Part shown: positions 1-64,000 of the stretch, piece after piece | How the letters are laid out: the number at the start of each line of letters is the position of its first letter | Numbering within the stretch: the stretch's first letter is position 1 | Source of the DNA: Candidatus Bathyarchaeota archaeon | GTDB taxonomy: Archaea; Thermoproteota; Bathyarchaeia; Bathyarchaeales; Bathyarchaeaceae | Reading direction: 5' to 3' | DNA: 64,000 nt | NCBI GenBank assembly: GCA_963697165.1 | Contig: CAVOMX010000025.1 | Coordinates: 1-64,000, forward strand | Notes under the pieces: generated by a model | Databases searched by the model: none | The model's input: only the letters and a program-made list of their open reading frames with translations | Told to the model about the DNA's origin: nothing | Program-made: the position numbers and the translations under genes

Positions 1-60
1 GTTATTAGTCTCCTAATATTAACTGTGGCTATTTGGAGTTTTATTGTCCGAGTCCTATGA
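1..60 (+). CDS. 3' end of a probable membrane protein (partial, starts before the window)
   Basis: Frame 1 reads VISLLILTVAIWSFIVRVL then TGA at 58-60; hydrophobic helix. Confidence 0.4.
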   Translation, partial: VISLLILTVAIWSFIVRVL

Positions 61-53608: not shown

Positions 53609-54991
53609 TTGAAGGACACGCTCTCAAAGATTGTTGGTTACGGTCAAAGTTTAGGCGCCGAATATGTTGAGGTTCGAGCGCAAAGTCTTTTCAAGACTCT
53701 TTTGACAACCAAAGACGGCATCGTTGAAGGAGCAAAAGAAGGAAAGGAATGCGGCGCTGGGGTCAGAGTTTTGGTGAACGGCGCTTGGGGTTTTGTGTCT
53801 CTTGGAAATCTACAAGCCATACTGTTAACTGAAGCTGTTGAAGACGCAGTTAAGTTAGCAAAAGCAGCCAGTTTTAGATTAAAAAATCCTGTGAAGCTTG
53901 CTGAAGCAAAAACTGTGGAAGACTGGATATCTGCTAAGCCGAAAAAAGATCCGCAGGATGTTTCTATGGAACAAAAGATTGGAGACGTTTTGGCGATGGA
54001 TAAAACAGTTTTTGGTTGTGACAATCGAATAAAAAGTTGCACAATCAACTACTTGGATGTTACAGGAAAAAGCTACTTCGTCAACAGTGACGGAACATGT
54101 ATAGAACAGGACAAATTGTATGTTTGGTCGCGGATTCTTGCGTCAGCAAAACAGGGCAGCATTTTTGCTTCTGCACGAGAGGAGATAGGTTCCACGTCGG
54201 GTTACGAAATTTTTGATTTGGCAACGCCAGAAAAGGTAGGTACAATGGTTGCTAAACGTGTGGTTGAGCAACTGAAGGCTAAGACACCGAAGGGCGGAGG
54301 TTTTCCAGCGATTATTGGTCCAAACGTTGTGGGCGTTTTTATTCACGAAGCGATGGGACATTTAGCAGAAGCTGATTTGATGTTGTCTGGTTCTGTGCTT
54401 TATGATAAACTTGGAAAACAGATTGCGTCAGAAGCAGTTACGGTTTATGACGACGGCACAGTTGACGGCGCATTTGGGTCCTTCAAATACGATGATGAGG
54501 GAGTTCGGACACAAAAGACGGCGTTAATCGAAAAAGGAAAACTTGTTGGTCTAATGCATAGCAGAGAAACTGCCGCTAAACTTAACATGGAACCTACAGG
54601 AAATGCCAGAGCAGAAGATTTTCGTTATGAGCCGATTATCAGAATGAGAAACACGTACCTTGCAGCGGGCGACAGAACATTTGAGGAATTAATTGAAGAC
54701 ATAGATTTTGGGTATTACCTCAAAAGTTTTCGGGGCGGACAAGCAAACTTGGATGGAACATTTCAGGTGGGTATACAAGAAGCTTACGAGATTGTTAAAG
54801 GTCAGCTCGGAGATGCCGTTAGAAGCGCGTCCATAAGCGGTAATACGCTTGAAACTTTGTACAGGGTAGACGCGGTTGGTAAAGATTTTGAGTTGTGGCC
54901 TGGAAGATGCGGCAAGGGACAGACAGCATTCATCTGTGATGGTGGACCACACATACGGGTAGAAGAGGTGGTTATTGGTGGCGGCTCCTAA
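53609..54991 (+). CDS. tldD: TldD metalloprotease
   Basis: HEAMGHLAEAD, YDDEG, RMRNT, CGKGQ. Confidence 0.93.
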   Translation: MKDTLSKIVGYGQSLGAEYVEVRAQSLFKTLLTTKDGIVEGAKEGKECGAGVRVLVNGAWGFVSLGNLQAILLTEAVEDAVKLAKAASFRLKNPVKLAEAKTVEDWISAKPKKDPQDVSMEQKIGDVLAMDKTVFGCDNRIKSCTINYLDVTGKSYFVNSDGTCIEQDKLYVWSRILASAKQGSIFASAREEIGSTSGYEIFDLATPEKVGTMVAKRVVEQLKAKTPKGGGFPAIIGPNVVGVFIHEAMGHLAEADLMLSGSVLYDKLGKQIASEAVTVYDDGTVDGAFGSFKYDDEGVRTQKTALIEKGKLVGLMHSRETAAKLNMEPTGNARAEDFRYEPIIRMRNTYLAAGDRTFEELIEDIDFGYYLKSFRGGQANLDGTFQVGIQEAYEIVKGQLGDAVRSASISGNTLETLYRVDAVGKDFELWPGRCGKGQTAFICDGGPHIRVEEVVIGGGS

Positions 54992-56354
54992 AGATTCAGA
55001 ATTGATAGATTTTGGCAAAAAAGCAGTCAACGTAGCCATAAGAAGAGGCGCTCAGGAAGCTGAAGCATTTTTGAGTAGGGCATCAAGCATTTCGATAGAC
55101 ATTGAAAGGGGACAAATTGTTAGAAGCACCAAAAGTACTGATCAGGGGTTGGGAGTTAGGGCAGTTTATGGGAAAGCAGTTGGATTTTCTTATGTTAATA
55201 CGTTAACGGATAGGGACATAGAAGAGGCTGCGGCAAGAGCGTTACGGGCTGCTAAAGCGAGCAGAGCGGATACGGATTGGGTGAGTTTTGCTGGCTCCAA
55301 AAAGTTTGGTAAAACAAAAGACACCTATGACAAAAGAGCGGCTGATGCGTCTTCGGATGAGTTAGTTGAGATGGCAGCTGACTTGTTGGGTGCGGTTGAG
55401 GCGTATGATAGACGGGTTTTGGCTGTTGATGGTGGAGTTGGAACTTCAGTTTTCCATAAGGTTGTTGTTAACTCTCATGGAGTTGAAGCTTACGACTTGG
55501 GCACTGCAGTCGGATGTTCCATGGAGACGATAGCAAGGGATGGAGGTGATGTGACTCCGGCGTGTTTTGAATTAAATGTAGAAAGAATCTACAAAATAGA
55601 CCCTGATACTGTTGGAACTGAGGCTGCAAGGCAGGCTGTTTCTGCGCTTAAAGCCAAAAAGGTTGAGTCTGGAGTGTTTCCGGTGATTTTTACTCAGGCT
55701 GCGTTTAGTTCTCTGCTATATTATACAGTGATAAACGCTGTCAAAGCTGATTATGTTCAGAGGGAAAGATCTGCGTTTAAGGACAAAATTGGAGAAAAAG
55801 TTGCCTCAGAGCTTGTATCGGTATATGATGATGGACTTCTTGAGGGCGGTCTCTTAACAAGCAAATTTGATGGCGAAGGCGTTCCATGCCAAAAAACGTC
55901 AGTTATCGAAAAAGGTGTCCTGAAGAATTTTTTGTATGACAATTACACGGCAAACAAGGCTGGAGTTGAAAGCACCGGAAACGCATCACGCTCAGGGCTT
56001 GCATCTTACGCTTCCACGCCAGCTCTTGAGGCCAGCAACTTTGTGTTTACAAAAGGAAACAAAACGGCTGAGGAGCTTGTAGCCGAGGTTGATGAGGGTT
56101 TTATAGTGTATGGTGTTCAGGGGGCGCATAGTAGTAATCCGGAGAGTGGAGAGTTTTCTGTTGTGGCTACTCCTGCATGGAAGATTGAAAAAGGGTCTGT
56201 GGCGTATGCTGTGCGTGAGGTTATGTTGACGGGCGTTTTCTTTGATGTTTTAAGGAACGTTTCGGCACTTGGCAGTAACGTCAGGAAAATGGGGCAGCTG
56301 GTTGCGCCATGGATCAGAGTAGAAAACGTCAAAGCCGTTGGAAAGCTGCTTTAG
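54975..56354 (+). CDS. pmbA: TldE/PmbA
   Basis: FDGEG, STGNASR, SGEFS; coupled to tldD. Confidence 0.92.
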   Translation: MVAAPKDSELIDFGKKAVNVAIRRGAQEAEAFLSRASSISIDIERGQIVRSTKSTDQGLGVRAVYGKAVGFSYVNTLTDRDIEEAAARALRAAKASRADTDWVSFAGSKKFGKTKDTYDKRAADASSDELVEMAADLLGAVEAYDRRVLAVDGGVGTSVFHKVVVNSHGVEAYDLGTAVGCSMETIARDGGDVTPACFELNVERIYKIDPDTVGTEAARQAVSALKAKKVESGVFPVIFTQAAFSSLLYYTVINAVKADYVQRERSAFKDKIGEKVASELVSVYDDGLLEGGLLTSKFDGEGVPCQKTSVIEKGVLKNFLYDNYTANKAGVESTGNASRSGLASYASTPALEASNFVFTKGNKTAEELVAEVDEGFIVYGVQGAHSSNPESGEFSVVATPAWKIEKGSVAYAVREVMLTGVFFDVLRNVSALGSNVRKMGQLVAPWIRVENVKAVGKLL

Positions 56355-56473
56355 AAAATGTGAACTTATTAATAGACAAAAAAATATTGCGTCGAAAGTG
56401 TATACAGTGGATACAAAAGCATCAACAGAAAATATAAAACCTGTTAGATAGCATACTTGAATGTAAGCACAGA

Positions 56474-57117
56474 CTATTTTCATCATGAATATAGCCATTT
56501 CAATGTCTGCTATACTGAAGGGGTATCCTTCGGAGTTTAGATAGTCTCGGATTATTTCTAGGGTCCAGATTAACTTTTGATAATTTTTTGTCCATCCAGA
56601 GTCTGAGCAGGGGTCTCCTGGTCTTGCACGTCCGGCTGGGCATTTGATGACTGGTTTTTCAGTAAATTGCAGAGTCTTTAGAGCGTGTCCAACGTTACTA
56701 TCGTAGATACAAAATCTTTCTTGATCGAAGAGTCCAATAATTTTGGATGCTCGAGATATTCCAACACCCTTTATGTTTAAGAGTTCCTCAACTGCATCAG
56801 ATATTTTGCCTTTATCAACAAAATCGAATACCCTTCTAGTAATCTCCAAAACTTTATCTTCGTCACGTAAAGGAAACGGAGGAAAACCGCCCCAAGACAT
56901 GATCATATCAAGAGTTTCAAGACCAACGCCACCAGAATTTTGAATCCGAGACAAAACGATGGCTTGAGAATACTTGGTTACGTTCCACGAGACATGCTTT
57001 AGGCTCTTTATCGTTCCATGAATAGTTCTTTCTACCTTCAATAAGACGTGATTTGTTTTCTTTGACCCAATCTAAAATAACTTGTCCGTATTTTCTTAAA
57101 AATAGGTCTTTATCCAT
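56474..57117 (-). CDS. Helix-hairpin-helix DNA glycosylase-like (OGG-like) protein with two apparent +1 A-run frameshifts
   Basis: IMSWGG, IKGVGISRASKI, FCIYDSNVG, DIEMAIFM; removing one A near 57008 and one near 56478 gives one ORF from 57117 to TAG at 56474. Confidence 0.65.
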
Positions 57118-57157
57118 AAGTGCCCCCTCTTTTGTAGATCACTTATTCAATGTTTTG

Positions 57158-57245
57158 TGGCGCGGGGTGCGGGATTTGAACCCGCGTGGCCCTACGGACC
57201 ACAGACTTAGCAGGCCTGCTCCCTACCAGGCTAGGAGAACCCCGC
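57158..57245 (-). tRNA. tRNA-Ser(GCT)
   Basis: GCGGGGT/ACCCCGC acceptor, CAGGC CT GCT AA GTCTG, long variable arm, G73, CCA. Confidence 0.96.
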
Positions 57246-57349
57246 AAAGGTCACTCTACTCCAATTTTCTCTAGTTCAAGACTCGGGAGTTTACCTTCCT
57301 ACAATTATACTCAGCATCTATTTTTGTCTTTTTGTGGGTTGACTACGCT
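57225..57349. repeat. Direct repeat copy A (tRNA-Ser 5' 21 nt plus upstream DNA)
   Basis: First 38 nt identical to 62888-62925; remainder similar with scattered differences. Confidence 0.92.
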
Positions 57350-57616
57350 CAAAAGGTAAAGCAACAAAAAAGACTTGTATCTTATATCATGTAATTCATA
57401 ATTTTTTGGAACAAGTTAATGCGCCCGCTAGAGTTTTTTTTCATTTCGTATCCCAATAAATTCTCACGAATAATTTGGGTTTGGAATTTGAGTAAATGGC
57501 AAAATATGGGAAACCAATTTAGAAACTCGTTTTGAATGCAGCTCACAAATTAAATAAGGAAATATTTAGATGTTAAAAAAAGTGGTCGGGATCAAACCTT
57601 GCGCGTGCGTTTATGA

Positions 57617-58027
57617 CTAATACGATATTAGAGGAAGAGTAATTTTTTGTTTTAAATTATTAGCTATTATTGTGTATTCGATATGAATGTATATTGTGGG
57701 ATCTTTGGAATTGGGTTTAGCCTCTATTTTAGCATGAATATTATCAATCCGTTTTTCCCATGTACTAAGAGATTTTTCTATGAGAAGTGAAAATTTTTAC
57801 CAATTCTGGCTCGTTTCGAATATAATAGATGTTAGATAGACATGTACGGGAGAGTCGAGGTAAGGGCTACGTAATCCTAAAATGAGTTGGATAGAATCAA
57901 TTATGTTTTTATAGTGTGCATTAAATCCTCCATCAACTTCATACGTTCTTCCAGGGAAATCGAGTCTTTCTCTGTAGGAGAGAACGGATAAACGAGAGGA
58001 AGAACAAAGGAGAAAATACGTAGACAC
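57617..58027 (-). pseudogene. gp25/GPW baseplate-wedge-like gene with an in-frame stop
   Basis: IIDSIQLILG...SIIFE...[TAA 57797-57799]...IEKSLSTWEKRI...IYIHIEYTI resembles the gp25 pattern ESIRIIL...LIFE...WEPRI...IEY.I. Confidence 0.6.
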
Positions 58028-58110
58028 GCGCGGATTGCCATTATGCGTTAGTCTTATTCTAGTTATTTTCCAAGTCCAACTTCGATTCTTATAAGAGTTC
58101 CATGATTAAA

Positions 58111-61100
58111 CTAATAATCACGTATCTTTGTCAATAATCGTGCTTTTAATTCATTTTTTTCATATCCTCTAATTTCCAATGTGAGAATTCCTTTGGAATG
58201 AGTTTCTTTCGGCATCTTTATTTTAATTTCTTTTGACTCATTTTGAACATCTACAGATTCAATTGGTCTATTTTCAATGAAAAAGTCAAGGCGTGATAGA
58301 TTTTCAGTGGTAACTACACCAATGATACTATAATTAACAATTTTCTTAAATTCAAAAGAAATTTCATGAACTAGCTTAGACGAAAGTATCTCTCCAGCTT
58401 TGTTTATTAAATCTTTATTACCGTTCAACAAATCGTCATCAGTCATTTGATAAAAAACATCTGGAGTAACTCCGAAATCTTCCAATGGAATAGTTGAATT
58501 TTTTCCAACTCTTAGCATCCTTCTTGCAGCAACTGTCATATTTGCCCCTTTGGGTAGAGAAAAGAATTGGGAGCTTGATGAGTTCGGAGATGTCTTTCCA
58601 GAATCTTTCATTAAGAGAAGAAGTAGATCATGACTCCACACATTTGCTCCTCCGGCTCCTGTATTTTTGTTTACCCCAATTATTGTCCCAATATTGTGAT
58701 CTTTGAATCCAGCCGCAAACATATCAGCCGCACTGTAAGTTAATCCATTCGTGATAAGAACTACAGGACCATAATATTTTTGACCAATATTATTACATGA
58801 GGTGAGAGACGTAATCGGAAATCCTCTGGAGTATGTAGCGCCCGTTTCTATAGCTTGATGTATCGAATCTTTCCAAGGTTTCAAATCGAAATCATCCCAT
58901 AGGTTTGAGGGGCTATTCTTTTCACATATCTCGAGCATTAATCTTGTATTAAGAAATTGAACCTTCTCTGGATTAATGGTATTAGGAGTCAATGTTTGTA
59001 ATAACCGTTCAGCAGCCATTATCAGACCTCCACCATTATCACGAATATCAATAATAAGCCCCTTTTTTGGAAGTGAAGAAAGTAGCTGGATAAACTCTTT
59101 TACGAATTTTTCACTATCATCTACTTTAAAGGTAAATATTCTTATATATGCAAAATCCCCAGCATCAGTTTTCGCCTTTTTGGCTCGGAATACCGATGGC
59201 ATGTCCGTTGGGATTTCTCCTCCTCTTACTGGAGCCCGATCAATATTCTTTTGCGCAATGTTCCTTTCAAGTTTAACAGCGTCTGGAGCGATCATCAACT
59301 TTTTTACTTCTTGAATCGCAAATGAGTGAAGATCCAGACCAAGCGCGGTTGCTTCGCCAACATTAGACTTAGGAGTTGTTGTAATGAATGCTGTTGGAGG
59401 CGCGAATACAAGCCATTTTTGGATTAATTGAAATTCTTTTTCATTAGAGCGATAATTGAAAGTTACCCATTCTTCATCTGGAGGAAATGAATTAATTAAT
59501 GGACGAATAGTTAGAGCATTGATTCCCCTTGCTCTTCGTGCAGCAGGATTACCTCCTCCTTGTTTTTCAGAATTTAATTCAATTGCACGTTTGATTGGAA
59601 TTCCATTCCAATGAGTGATTTCGACACCTTTTTTAAACGTCTTTGGACCGAATCCTTCCATTTTGTAAGAAACGATATATTTTGGATTTTTTTCTCCCGA
59701 ATTATCTTTTATGAAACATTCCTCAATAATGAATGGCATGAAGGCAATTTTTCCCTTAAATGGATGGGGCAGAAGGTAATTTGTATGAAGATCTCTGGTA
59801 GATTTAAAAATATCAATCATTTCTTTATGGAATTCAATTTCACAAGGTAATTCTTCTATTGTTGTCCTTTCAAGCTTGTATTGCAATAATTTTAAGCGTT
59901 GTATGGGATCAATTGCATACATCGCTTTTTTATGAGGTAGATGAACATAAACTTGTTCAAGTAGAACAAGTGCTTGATTAACTATATCTAGACGTTCGGA
60001 GCACTTCAAATATCCTTCTGAACTTAAGAAGGTAGATAATTCAGAGGTGGTATCAAAAAGTTCTTCTTGATATTCATCTTTGAAAGTAATGCTTTCAGGA
60101 AGAATGGGTTTTACTCCGTATATTGAGGGTAACCTTTTTCTTAGAAAGTCGGGGAGATTTACTTGATTTGCAATTTTTTTGAAATATTGTTTATCATCGA
60201 CAACTGCCAAAGGATCAAGTTCTACTACTACATCTTTTAAAAGTGTTGGATAATCTACTGCTTCATAAAAACTTGGAAAACCAGTTTCATTTCCTTCATA
60301 AGGTATATGTGGCCTAATGAATTCGGTTGCTAGTTCATCTTGTTCCAATGATAAAAACCAATAAGGTTTCATCGTTAAGCCTGATGTTGCGCGATTCCAT
60401 CCAGAATCAGGTTGTTCAAGATCAGTAGCCAATTCACCTAATCGTGATAATCCGTCTTGAAGGCGATCGACGGCTTCACTCAATTTTAAAGTTAAAGAGA
60501 TTGGATTGTTATTTTTAGTTTCAAGGTTTAATAATCGAAAAGAATTTTTAATCTTAAGAATTTCGGTATTTAACTTAAAATTATCCATTAGCCGTTTTTG
60601 ACCATATCGAGGAATACCATCTATTACCACAAAAGTAATTGAAGTTTCTCGTGCATCTATAAGTCCTTGATATGGTGGCCCTTTCTGTCCATTGATTACA
60701 ACCAAATCTGCAATTTTTCCCTTTTCTATTGTTCCAATATGTTTATCCCACTTCAGAATTTTTGCAGCATTTCGTGTAACCATTGAAACTAATTCTTTTT
60801 TTGTGAAAGGTTCATCTAATTCATTGTTGATTAAGTGAGCTATTTTCAATTCACATAAAAGATTCTTGCTTCCTGTCGGAGACCAATCTGAACCTAAAGC
60901 GATGAGTAACCCGGAGTCTTTCGCACATCTTATCCTAGCAGTTTGTCCATATAGTAAATAGTTACTCAATGGAGACCATACTATGGAAGCTTCATATTTC
61001 TTCAGTATATCAAAATCTTCAGCTTCAAGTGCTACGCAATGAATTCCAGACAATGCATCTGTAATTGCCCACTTTTCCTCAGAGATCTGAAGAGCAAAAA

Positions 61101-61768
61101 AATGAGCCCGCGATCTTTCATCCACACCTTCACTAAGATGCAACAGCTTGCATCCCTTACTTTCTTCTAGTTGATCCAAGAAAGTTTCTGCTTCTCTTGC
61201 TGCTACATCAGCAATTCTTGTACCTGCATTTGGTAAATCTTCATTATCAGTGGCTTCAACATTACGTACTAACCCTTTAAATCTGGTCTTAGTTCCTGCT
61301 ACCGCATCTGCAAGCGTTATCCCCTGAGAAGTTGTTACACCTGAAATAAGACATTTACATTCAACATATCTAATAATTGCTTCAATATATTTAATTGACC
61401 TTCCCAGCACATACATAGGTCCTCTAATTAATCGCGTTTTATCGCGATGACCTTGCCACTGCCCACGGTTCTTGAATGTTTTAGGAACATTCCATAGTGG
61501 TAAAATGTTATAACATAAATGATTGTGAAGTTCAATTAATCCAGGATAAATTGTACCACCTGTACGAATTACCTGGATTTCTTCGAATCCTTGAGGAGGA
61601 GTTTCGTTTGAAGGTTTTACATCCACAATTTTTTCTTTTTCAATGTATATTGTCCCTTTGTCTAATACTTCAAAATCATCATTCATCGTGACGATTTTTC
61701 CTTGAATTGCATATTTCGGTTTGTTTTGTAAGTCGATTTTATTTTTTGGCGAATTGTTTTCCCCCCAT
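58111..61768 (-). CDS. Deaminase-type amidohydrolase fused to an S41 (tricorn/CPAF-like) serine protease
   Basis: PGLIELHNH, HLSEG, IHC, LGSDW (amidohydrolase); RDLHTNY, DIRDNGGG, TYSAADMFAAG, TGAGG (S41). ORF intact 61686-58111; the natural start is probably ATG at 61768, offset by an extra G in a G6 run. Confidence 0.85.
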
Positions 61769-61908
61769 TATTTTTTTAAAACGAATTCTATTACAGTTAC
61801 TTCATGTTTTTTAAAAACTATAAAATTTTCCCTAGTTATGGTTAATCCGCTACTCTTGAATACCTAAATCTTGTAATTAAATTTAAAAATAACTTACCTG
61901 AAATTACT

Positions 61909-62859
61909 ATGGGGGATAATATGGGTTCTTCTTTTAAAAAATTATTAATAAATAAATACCTGAGTAAATCTATTGACGAAATTTTAAATTCATCATCAGC
62001 GGCTCTCCGAGGACTTAGTGAGACTGACGCCAGCGAGTTAGAAAATTCAATCGACATCACTACTATAAGGGATATGGCGAATAACGAATTTTTTATTCAT
62101 GCAAAGGCTTTACTTTCGGCATCTGGTACACCCAACTACGATCCGGGTCCTCCACCAGATTGGACTGATTTCTTTGAATCCGTACCTAATTACATGTCCC
62201 ATTGGCCAAAAAGAATTCGATGGGAATTCGGACCAATTTTTTACAGAGGAAGACTTGATGGTACTGCAAGAGTAATTGTGATTGGTCAAGATCCGTCCAC
62301 TGATGAAGCACTTGCGCGTCGTGTTTTTGTTGGAGGTTCAGGACAACGCGTTCAAGGGCTCCTTAAAAAACTAGGTATCAGTTCTTCTTACATTATGATT
62401 AACACATTCGTATTTAGCATCTACGGACAATTTGATGCTGAAATGAAGACTATTTCCAAGAATTCTCTAGTTTTGAATTACAGAAATGAATATTTGGACA
62501 GACTAATCGAACAAAATAACATCGAAGCAATCATCGCTATTGGTGCAGCAGCTCGTCACGCCATTGAGAATTGGTCTATCCCACAAGGATTGCACGTTTC
62601 AAATTTAGTCCATCCCTCAGCACCACCAAACATGGTAACTGCCGATTGGAACAAAGATCTCTCAATTTTGCTTAATAAAATTGAACCAGACTTAAACGAA
62701 GTTCAAGATAATAGACCCTATGGTCAAAATTGGGCACCCGGAGACCGGGTCCCAATTCCTAGAAGAGATTTACCGTTTGGAATACCTGAATTCTTAGGTA
62801 CTGGTGGGACTAGAAGTCGTAGAGACACTCCAAAAAAAATTGTTTGGGAAGCACCATAA
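61909..62859 (+). CDS. Uracil-DNA glycosylase superfamily protein with an extra N-terminal domain
   Basis: Motif A IGQDP, FVGGSG, YIMINT, motif B HPS; contains no cysteine, so no 4Fe-4S cluster. Confidence 0.82.
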   Translation: MGDNMGSSFKKLLINKYLSKSIDEILNSSSAALRGLSETDASELENSIDITTIRDMANNEFFIHAKALLSASGTPNYDPGPPPDWTDFFESVPNYMSHWPKRIRWEFGPIFYRGRLDGTARVIVIGQDPSTDEALARRVFVGGSGQRVQGLLKKLGISSSYIMINTFVFSIYGQFDAEMKTISKNSLVLNYRNEYLDRLIEQNNIEAIIAIGAAARHAIENWSIPQGLHVSNLVHPSAPPNMVTADWNKDLSILLNKIEPDLNEVQDNRPYGQNWAPGDRVPIPRRDLPFGIPEFLGTGGTRSRRDTPKKIVWEAP

Positions 62860-62887
62860 AATCAATTATTTAACAAAGGTAACTATA

Positions 62888-63012
62888 ACCAGGCTAGGAG
62901 AACCCCGCAAAGGTCACTCTACTCCGATTTTCTCTATTTCTCAGACTCGAGAGTTTACCTTTTTACCACTATGCTCATCATCTATTTTTGTCTTTTGTGG
63001 ATTGACAAAGCT
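62888..63012. repeat. Direct repeat copy B (truncated tRNA-Ser 5' end plus upstream DNA)
   Basis: ACCAGGCTAGGAGAACCCCGCAAAGGTCACTCTACTCC identical to 57225-57262. Confidence 0.92.
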
Positions 63013-63068
63013 AAAGATTATGCATAGATGTGCGAGAATAGATTTTTCGGGGGCAATTTATAAACAAC

Positions 63069-63245
63069 TTAAATTACCTCAAGAGCTCCATCGTTTATTG
63101 AGACACAAGATGGGGTGAGCTTCACACTTGCTGCACCATTACTCAATTCAATGTTACCTATATTCATAATGATCTTCAAGCCAGTTACGCTTTCAATAGT
63201 GATTTCACCTGTACCCAGTATGGCTTTGATTGTTATTTTGGCAAA
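63069..63245 (-). pseudogene. C-terminal fragment of a contractile-system spike (gpV/gp5/VgrG-like)
   Basis: GEITIESVTGLKIIMNIGNIELSNGAASVKLTPSCVSINDGALEVI resembles the beta-helix end of eCIS spike proteins; N-terminal domains are missing. Confidence 0.65.
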
Positions 63246-63299
63246 ATTTGTTTTGATATGATGCACACTAATAAATGAGAGGGATAGCAAAGATTCAGT

Positions 63300-64000
63300 C
63301 TAATTACCAGCTATCTGTTGGATCTTTATTATAATAAATTCCGCTGGTTTCAGAGGTGCAAATCCTATGATGATATTAACAATACCTCGATCGATGTCAT
63401 ATTGTGTAGTAGTCTCTTTATCGCATTTCACAAAATATGCTTCTTTGGGGGCGGTACCTTGAAATGCACCTTGTATAAACATTTCGTGCATAAACTTACC
63501 TACATTAAGACGAATTTGTGACCAGAGCGGTTCATCATTCGGTTCAAACACAACCCACTGAGTTCCTCGATAAAGGCTTTCTTCGATATAAAGGGCCACT
63601 CGACGAACAGAGAGGTATTTCCATTGGTCAGCCAGTCTATCTGCTCCTCTCATTGTGCGTGCACCCCAAACTACTGGTCCGATTACAGGCATGATTCGCA
63701 GACAGTTGATGCCTAACTGATTTAACTTACCGTTTTCTTTATCTGTCAATTGGTTACTTAACCCGGATATTCCTATCAAGGTTGCTTTATCACCCGCCGG
63801 AGATTTCCAGACACCACGTTCAATATCCGTTCGTGTAATCACACCTGCAACCGCACCGCAGGGCACAAAATCCCGAATTATATTATTACTTTCAGGATCG
63901 TTTGCTTTGATTCGAGGGAAATATATTGCAGCGTTTTTGTGTCTTTTTGGTTGGAAACCTGGACTATCTATTCCAATATTAGGATCCATTGGTTTAGCTT
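63300..64000 (-). CDS. Contractile tail sheath protein, eCIS (Afp/PVC-like) type; runs off the window
   Basis: GVWKSPAG, LNQLGINCLR, VWGART, WKYLSVRR, VFEPND, GAFQG, AYFVKCD, APLKPAEF. Confidence 0.93.
   Translation of the reverse strand, partial: AKPMDPNIGIDSPGFQPKRHKNAAIYFPRIKANDPESNNIIRDFVPCGAVAGVITRTDIERGVWKSPAGDKATLIGISGLSNQLTDKENGKLNQLGINCLRIMPVIGPVVWGARTMRGADRLADQWKYLSVRRVALYIEESLYRGTQWVVFEPNDEPLWSQIRLNVGKFMHEMFIQGAFQGTAPKEAYFVKCDKETTTQYDIDRGIVNIIIGFAPLKPAEFIIIKIQQIAGN

Follow-up and report, generated by a model that had tools for sequence, protein, structure and literature searches.

Two adjacent genes encode an amidohydrolase-protease fusion and a uracil-DNA glycosylase

We analyzed a 64,000-nucleotide stretch of a Candidatus Bathyarchaeota genome (assembly GCA_963697165.1, contig CAVOMX010000025.1; hereafter, the window), in which a preliminary description had proposed a two-gene system. 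The gene content is archaeal. The first gene, on the minus strand (58111..61686), encodes a protein of 1191 amino acids if translation begins at the first in-frame ATG; it fuses a deaminase-type amidohydrolase domain (AH) to an S41 protease. The second gene lies head-to-head with it on the plus strand (61921..62859) and encodes a 312-amino-acid uracil-DNA glycosylase (UDG) assigned to the BdiUng (Blr0248) family. We find that the pair is one copy of a mobile module spread across phyla, in which AH and UDG are linked or fused, usually with a protease. The module is likely a real, conserved and undescribed multi-domain system of known folds, whose function we infer from sequence and predicted structure. 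Our tentative reading is that it may be a protease-gated conflict system that deaminates and then excises bases in single-stranded DNA (ssDNA).

Open reading frames (ORFs), Pfam domains and conserved catalytic residues bear out both genes. Pfam matches the fusion to Amidohydro_1 at residues 45-353 (E 5.5e-20) and to Peptidase_S41 at residues 845-1014 (E 3.7e-20), and the glycosylase to UDG at residues 117-247 (E 3.3e-10). An alternative ATG at 61909 would give a UDG of 316 amino acids; its homologues begin at the position equivalent to the ATG at 61921. The AF2 model of the fusion is confident (pLDDT 90.4, pTM 0.87), with pLDDT below 50 confined to residues 452-460. The AH-S41 fusion is widespread, with 1332 matches among 8000 scored candidates, and the 120 matches listed show 45-56% identity over at least 90% of their length. 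The complete HxH, HxxE, H, D site that had been read from the sequence (H54, H56, H183, E186, H216 and D267) is present and invariant in 120/120 aligned sequences, as are the protease His (H634, in RDLH) and Ser (S985, in TYSAAD), while E1069 is kept in 119/120. By a hydrophobicity proxy, a hydrophobic N-terminus or signal peptide was found in 0/120 AH-S41 homologues.

AH resembles salvage deaminases but forms a family of its own

The AH domain occupies residues 1-420 (60427..61686, minus strand) and is followed by a family-specific C-terminal extension and a low-confidence linker (residues 421-545; 60052..60426, minus strand); the extension is also retained by stand-alone AH homologues. By its fold and its HxH, HxxE, H, D site, AH is a member of the deaminase-type amidohydrolase superfamily, sharing a TIM barrel, a beta-sandwich and this site with the methylthioadenosine (MTA)/adenosine deaminases 4dzh and 4gbd, the isocytosine/8-oxoguanine deaminase 7ww2, guanine deaminase and AtzA. 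Its best structural match is 4dzh (Z 27.5, rmsd 2.9, 367 aligned residues), and MTA/adenosine, isocytosine/8-oxoguanine, triazine and guanine deaminases all fall at Z 22-27. On the other hand, AH shares only 17-21% identity with these deaminases, carries 120 extra C-terminal residues and invariant aromatics of its own (Y59, W65, W77, W237, Y246 and W268), and is fused to a protease or a UDG. It also scores below every NCBIfam equivalog cut-off for the named deaminases (guanine, MTA/S-adenosylhomocysteine, 8-oxoguanine, 5'-deoxyadenosine and HutI), with a best score of 71 bits against a cut-off of 375 (guanine deaminase).

At 50% identity, the AH family falls into 624 clusters (E up to 1e-30), although members of neighbouring families may be among them. 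One AH clade bears an N-terminal HAD-like domain, with weak Pfam matches in three proteins (the clade includes P0373, P0384, P0387, P0391, P0410 and others; L or P with digits labels the homologous loci or proteins compared), and many of the 23 N-extended AH representatives look alike. The domain hints at nucleotide substrates for the clade.

The protease is CPAF-like

The protease with its PDZ-like domain spans residues 559-1107 (58366..60012, minus strand), and the secondary structure of the model delimits a C-terminal all-beta domain after it (residues 1108-1191; 58114..58365, minus strand). By its fold and its His, Ser and Glu catalytic positions (H634, S985 and E1069), the protease is a CPAF-like S41 enzyme but not a CPAF equivalog itself. 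Its best structural match is CPAF (3dor; Foldseek E 2.2e-22; Z 24.0, rmsd 4.2, 450 aligned residues), while identity to CPAF is 16-18% and the match to the chlamydial CPAF equivalog NF033424 (E 8.5e-22, 77.5 bits) lies below the cut-off of 250. It further differs from CPAF in having no signal peptide and in being fused to AH. We take the catalytic roles of the three residues to be those of their CPAF-type analogues. PF17816 is found in homologues of the fusion. CPAF itself is activated as a zymogen.

The glycosylase belongs to the BdiUng family

Comparison with the solved structure of BdiUng (5gn2) assigns the window UDG to the BdiUng family, with a phmmer E of 9.8e-39 (next match, E 0.06) and a structural Z of 31.4 (rmsd 1.7, 238 aligned residues, 35% identity; next structure, Z 14.9). 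The two share the fold, motif A (GQDP followed by a small residue), the pocket E, N and H, and the lack of Fe-S cysteines. In the window UDG, motif A and the pocket include Q123, D124, P125, S126, E129, M159, N161 and H231, which include the equivalents of BdiUng E62, M92, N94 and H168, and the protein has no Cys. It differs from BdiUng in having F136 in place of L69 and about 70 extra N-terminal residues, which are helical and possibly helix-hairpin-helix (HhH)-like, a weak lead (0.82-0.84). The GQDP and HPS motifs, the missing Cys and the extension had all been described correctly. The earlier comparison with Brig1 appears to hold only at the level of the superfamily, and the BdiUng family had gone unnamed; no Brig entry was among the 50 structural matches listed for the window UDG.

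According to the main text of PMC5449639, BdiUng acts on ssDNA, where it excises uracil, 5-hydroxymethyluracil (hmU) and xanthine but not inosine; it is resistant to Ugi and fails to rescue an E. coli ung mutant. The words "operon" and "upstream" occur in no passage of this main text, and no partner gene is described there. A dimeric state is a further trait of the family.

Some family members are tandem UDGs with a degenerate second motif A (ADQx in 12/16). A hydrophobic N-terminus occurs in 17/54 long UDGs, some with HhH repeats; among the tandem BdiUng-like proteins P0243-P0260, two of which are named Myxococcales, these features mark apparently exported glycosylases. Separately, the AH-less BdiUng homologues L140, L148 and L157 share a different 220-amino-acid neighbour, which we take to resemble DUF2278/YukJ.

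The tandem proteins bear on an improbable alternative in which the UDG would be a sensor. Acting on phage ssDNA, it would remove bases of the uracil or hmU type; the protease and AH would then be switched on by the released base, by the abasic DNA or by the UDG in its bound state, and would halt the cell by depleting a nucleotide. A degenerate second motif A would suit such a role, UDG-fold defence enzymes exist (available part of 10.1101/2025.10.29.685425), and the substrates given for BdiUng in the main text of PMC5449639 fit base substitutions known from phages. The single UDG of the window type, however, retains the full catalytic site, and a defence-island signal is lacking for this alternative as well (see below).

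AH and UDG are linked, fused and repeatedly re-paired across phyla

The preliminary description had staked its proposal on linkage of the domains in other genomes, and we find them linked, fused and re-paired across phyla. Protease motifs located 565 genome loci, of which we retained 80, 26 with AH and 54 without. A BdiUng-type UDG lies within 2.5 kb in 22/26 AH-containing loci versus 0/42 fully flanked S41-only loci; AH-less loci with short flanks have a UDG in 3/12. As for the other four AH loci, a UDG from another clade sits immediately upstream in L016, contig ends are close by in L001 and L046, and the UDG of L050 is about 5.5 kb off. We also compared 80 of the 109 metagenome loci located through the UDG, keeping near-duplicates, and AH or S41 adjoins the UDG in 47 of them. 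Where at least 1 kb is available on both sides (n = 33), linkage holds for 19/21 N-extended UDGs and 4/12 short forms; two further UDG loci (L219 and L220) have no AH within their short flanks. Of 400 Actinomycetota genomes drawn evenly, 17 contain AH, and the UDG is adjacent or fused in 9/17, while two loci are cut by contig ends and six AHs stand alone. Among 54 long UDG matches, there are 19 UDG-AH fusions, one AH-UDG, one S41-UDG that is possibly an artefact, 30 tandem UDGs and three others.

AH is also paired or fused with other UDG types: a family-1-like GQDPY protein at L162 (Pfam E 0.008), matches to Pfam UDG at L016 (E 3.9e-9) and in P0342 (E 1.1e-6), and UDG-like domains recognised by motif only at L165 and in P0380. 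In a quick tree of 77 AH loci, linked loci are scattered, deepest branches included, and show four gene orders. The head-to-head order that had been described is true of the window but exceptional elsewhere, since only 3/77 loci are divergent (the window, L202 and L214) and in the other linked loci the genes run in the same direction or are fused. Co-divergence of AH and UDG was not seen, as their distances in quick trees are uncorrelated (Mantel rho 0.055, p 0.16, 56 pairs). Since the trees do not co-diverge and UDG clades have been recruited repeatedly, the pairing appears to have been re-made and not only inherited. At five S41-less loci, another protease is adjacent: a caspase (L204), S8 proteases (L165, L205 and L206) and an M36 protease (L158). 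AH and UDG are the core of the module, and the protease is frequent and exchangeable. Clustering of 6253 ORFs from 160 loci yielded no further conserved partner genes beyond the three domains.

Three further loci lie on plasmids. A Variovorax plasmid (L162:7926-13576) carries an operon of S41, cytochrome P460-like, AH and family-1-like UDG genes, combining another UDG clade with an extra gene. An Azospirillum plasmid (L165:5440-11948) carries a gene for a nucleosidase-like protein (named by eye), followed by one for a fusion of AH with an unassigned 450-residue UDG-like domain and then by S8 protease genes, as seen also with P0380, P0385 and P0432. A Mesorhizobium plasmid (L168:5340-17194) encodes an S8-S41 double protease, followed by phospholipase D-like and M20 hydrolase genes.

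The pairing could instead reflect a toxin with its repair enzyme, in which AH would be a protease-activated toxic deaminase and the UDG would protect the producer by removing lesions. AH-S41 is near-obligately paired with a UDG, and EndoV, which plays this protective part for the YwqJ deaminase toxin of Bacillus subtilis, offers a precedent (available part of PMC13648612). We nevertheless regard this as improbable: single-chain UDG-AH fusions would be odd for a toxin and its antidote, some clades have AH alone, the 120 AH-S41 homologues lack a signal peptide by the proxy given above, secretion genes are not shared among the loci, and BdiUng leaves chromosomal U:G unrepaired in E. coli (main text of PMC5449639).

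The window copy fills an att-bounded segment at a tRNA gene

In this genome, the two genes lie beside a tRNA-Ser(GCT) gene (57158..57245, minus strand) that was the integration target. The left direct repeat (57225..57352, plus strand) contains the 5' end of tRNA-Ser and some 105 bp more, and the right att-like repeat (62888..63015, plus strand) starts 28 bp past the UDG stop; the two are 87.6% identical over 128 bp and spaced 5663 bp apart. AH-S41 and UDG are the sole ORFs longer than 80 amino acids within this 5.66-kb segment, whose GC content is 0.357 versus 0.414 for the genome. A third copy of the att core, 24 bp long, is found at contig position 71637-71660, next to an integrase-like gene named by eye. 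We examined 15 congeneric tRNA loci out of 20 with a match, and the spacing from tRNA-Ser to tRNA-Val is 95-98 bp in 14 of them and 1.1 kb in one; here, it is 14.5 kb. The locus thus has the att repeats, the empty site in relatives and, in the next segment, the integrase-like ORF of a tRNA-integrated element. A search of 300 other genomes from the same class found neither gene, and the nearest AH relatives in a quick tree are Chloroflexota records.

The window copy of the fusion may be N-terminally short or frameshifted. At least 8 residues precede the position of its Met1 in 115/119 homologues, and its first in-frame ATG omits a strand that 115/119 possess. The upstream stretch (61687..61768, minus strand) encodes this first strand in frame, and a one-base shift across a G6 run (61761-61766) puts the ATG at 61768 out of frame. 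A single 151-bp contig from reads (run X2) matches the start region without gaps, which is weak evidence at a depth of 2.3 and with 17 letters on one side.

It is very improbable, in our judgment, that the head-to-head pair came together by chance, or is decaying, and lacks a joint role in this archaeon. Both sets of catalytic residues are retained across 4.5 kb that no stop interrupts, the att-bounded segment is filled by these genes alone, and the same domains pair elsewhere. Such an assembly would nonetheless fit the rare divergent order, the apparently frameshifted start and the mixed affinities of the pair, as the nearest AH relatives (L002 and L004) use a tandem UDG and the closest relatives of the window UDG are in other lineages.

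The tRNA-Ser gene holds a tandem att array in which two segments open with the same 128-bp arm. The second segment (62910-71660) contains tail-sheath, helix-turn-helix, amylase-like, radical SAM-like and integrase-like genes, all but the sheath named by eye. The 3' part of the lone contractile tail-sheath gene (63300..64000, minus strand) is cargo of this segment, outside the module; the gene reaches contig position 64868 (522 amino acids), and no other tail gene was seen in the segment. We rejected the idea that the module is cargo of a contractile injection system, given that the sheath is in a separate att segment and DUF6519 is near only three loci. A tail tube gene had no match in the genome, in a search whose control likewise matched nowhere, and the available part of PMC8213781 names no amidohydrolase or glycosylase. 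Just outside the tRNA gene, 56250-57041 (minus strand) encodes a weakly matched HhH protein of uncertain start (Pfam E 0.008; MutY-like E 0.03) that may be a glycosylase of the HhH type. The genome has many copies of a dispersed, roughly 50-bp repeat, including those at contig position 71866-71916 and window position 1-21. An RNA-element scan of window positions 54000-64000 found only tRNA-Ser.

A deaminate-and-excise conflict system is a tentative reading of the module

In the reading that we tentatively prefer, AH would first deaminate an amino-base of the cytosine, 5-substituted cytosine or guanine type in ssDNA, short oligonucleotides or nucleotides. The BdiUng-type enzyme would then excise uracil, hmU or xanthine from ssDNA, and the resulting abasic sites would fragment or block foreign DNA. 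The deaminase comes most naturally first because the products of the UDG are already deaminated, and deamination of C, 5-hydroxymethylcytosine or G is favoured over A to I because of BdiUng's known substrates. We had initially preferred poisoning of the deoxynucleoside triphosphate pool, but the apparent export of tandem UDGs favours ssDNA or oligonucleotides. In the third and weakest step, a cytoplasmic CPAF-like protease might be a zymogen switch that, once triggered, becomes active and frees or unlocks AH at the linker; co-occurrence, the low-confidence linker and CPAF biology suggest it.

Some of the genomic context is of a conflict type. AH is fused to KAP NTPases in P0318, P0341, P0362 and P0395, the last of which is also fused to a domain that presumably resembles MoxR-vWA system proteins. 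TIR/nSTAND1, TIR, trypsin-TPR and caspase proteins are neighbours at some loci, and plasmid AHs adjoin AbiH, DptH, HsdR and HNH genes.

Several observations weigh against a conflict system of this kind. Sequence, structure and profile matches do not single out one best substrate class for AH, and its characterised structural neighbours, by entry titles, act on free bases, nucleosides and small heterocycles, none on DNA. PADLOC 2.0 (2023), a check that the preliminary description had proposed, gave no family match to either protein up to an E of 1, with a library that predates systems from 2024-26. Enrichment in defence islands was not found: after two antisense ORFs were dropped from 140 neighbour proteins, 8/138 match PADLOC in an uncontrolled count, all through generic domains, and in 32 loci elsewhere the module shows no dip in GC relative to its flanks (median +0.005; 2 lower, 10 higher). 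Only 2/32 other loci are near a tRNA gene. Relatives of the two proteins were absent from the viral contigs searched, which also led us to reject a viral origin, and BdiUng had no match on the plasmids searched. Among well-flanked short-form UDGs, 8/12 have no AH or S41 beside them; a clade of seven actinobacterial and four plasmid AHs has no adjacent UDG; and the AH and UDG loci L202, L217 and L218, which are well resolved or short, show no protease. The possibly defective start of the window fusion counts here as well. The earlier idea of an undescribed defence, toxin or toxin-immunity system is partly borne out, through the linkage of its domains across phyla; its gating by proteolysis, its toxicity and its defence role are putative.

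A catabolic or sanitising role is the main alternative, possible though rather unlikely, and is raised also by the apparent export of tandem UDGs. Here, the pair would strip and deaminate damaged or modified bases, from nucleic-acid fragments or the nucleotide pool, for nitrogen or base salvage or for detoxification, and the protease would handle attached peptides (e.g., DNA-protein cross-links) or be accessory. The closest AH folds are salvage deaminases, AH is fused to an N-terminal HAD-like domain in some proteins, neighbours are mostly housekeeping genes, GC is host-like, and the hydrophobic N-termini of 17/54 long UDGs suit an extracellular DNA substrate. The very patchy range argues otherwise, however, with the module in 0/300 genomes of the archaeon's own class, 0/400 Pseudomonadota genomes and 1/300 Chloroflexota genomes, and scavenging leaves the repeated protease partners unexplained. 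No transporter or downstream catabolic gene is shared, nor any nucleobase riboswitch; in the regions preceding the module at 38 loci, the matches were confined to unrelated molybdenum cofactor, S-adenosylmethionine and tRNA elements. Since the module is patchy and BdiUng fails to complement E. coli ung (main text of PMC5449639), a housekeeping role is unlikely.

Comparison with known systems

Our literature search, which left most subscription papers outside its coverage, found no description of the module. Deamination is an antiviral step in RADAR, whose RdrB is an amidohydrolase-fold enzyme, in AvcD/dCTP deaminase systems and in APOBEC with UNG. To our knowledge, none of these pairs it with a dedicated UDG and a protease, and the window proteins have no PADLOC match to deaminase defence of the RADAR or AvcD type. 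Known ternary/EACC1 conflict systems were considered and set aside, as the main text of PMC7159879 does not contain the word "amidohydrolase". In the available part of PMC13648612, YwqJ-YwqK-EndoV of B. subtilis likewise encodes both a deaminase and an enzyme whose target is the deaminated base, but it comprises a secreted LXG toxin, an immunity protein and endonuclease V, with other folds and no protease. Brig1, Brig2 and Dag1/2 are also UDG-superfamily enzymes, and the window UDG lies on a mobile, AT-rich segment; on the other hand, the available part of 10.1101/2025.10.29.685425 describes them as single glycosylases enriched in defence loci and mentions no hydrolase, peptidase or protease partner, whereas the present module has no such enrichment.

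BdiUng has been a solved and assayed glycosylase that is unfit for housekeeping repair and has no known role, and it now has a recurring partner. This partner belongs to a large, unnamed AH family that repeatedly recruits glycosylases and proteases, and the window adds an archaeal, att-bounded, two-gene minimal transferable unit. If AH does act on DNA, it would be the first TIM-barrel deaminase to do so, which would be new chemistry for the fold and a possible lead for base editing. More speculatively, and with rather low confidence, we suggest that the module may be the prokaryotic equivalent of APOBEC-plus-UNG immunity, assembled from other folds, with AH acting on ssDNA, a dedicated glycosylase and an exchangeable protease switch in a self-contained two-gene cassette that would pass between bacteria and archaea. 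The orphan BdiUng family would then gain a biological role.

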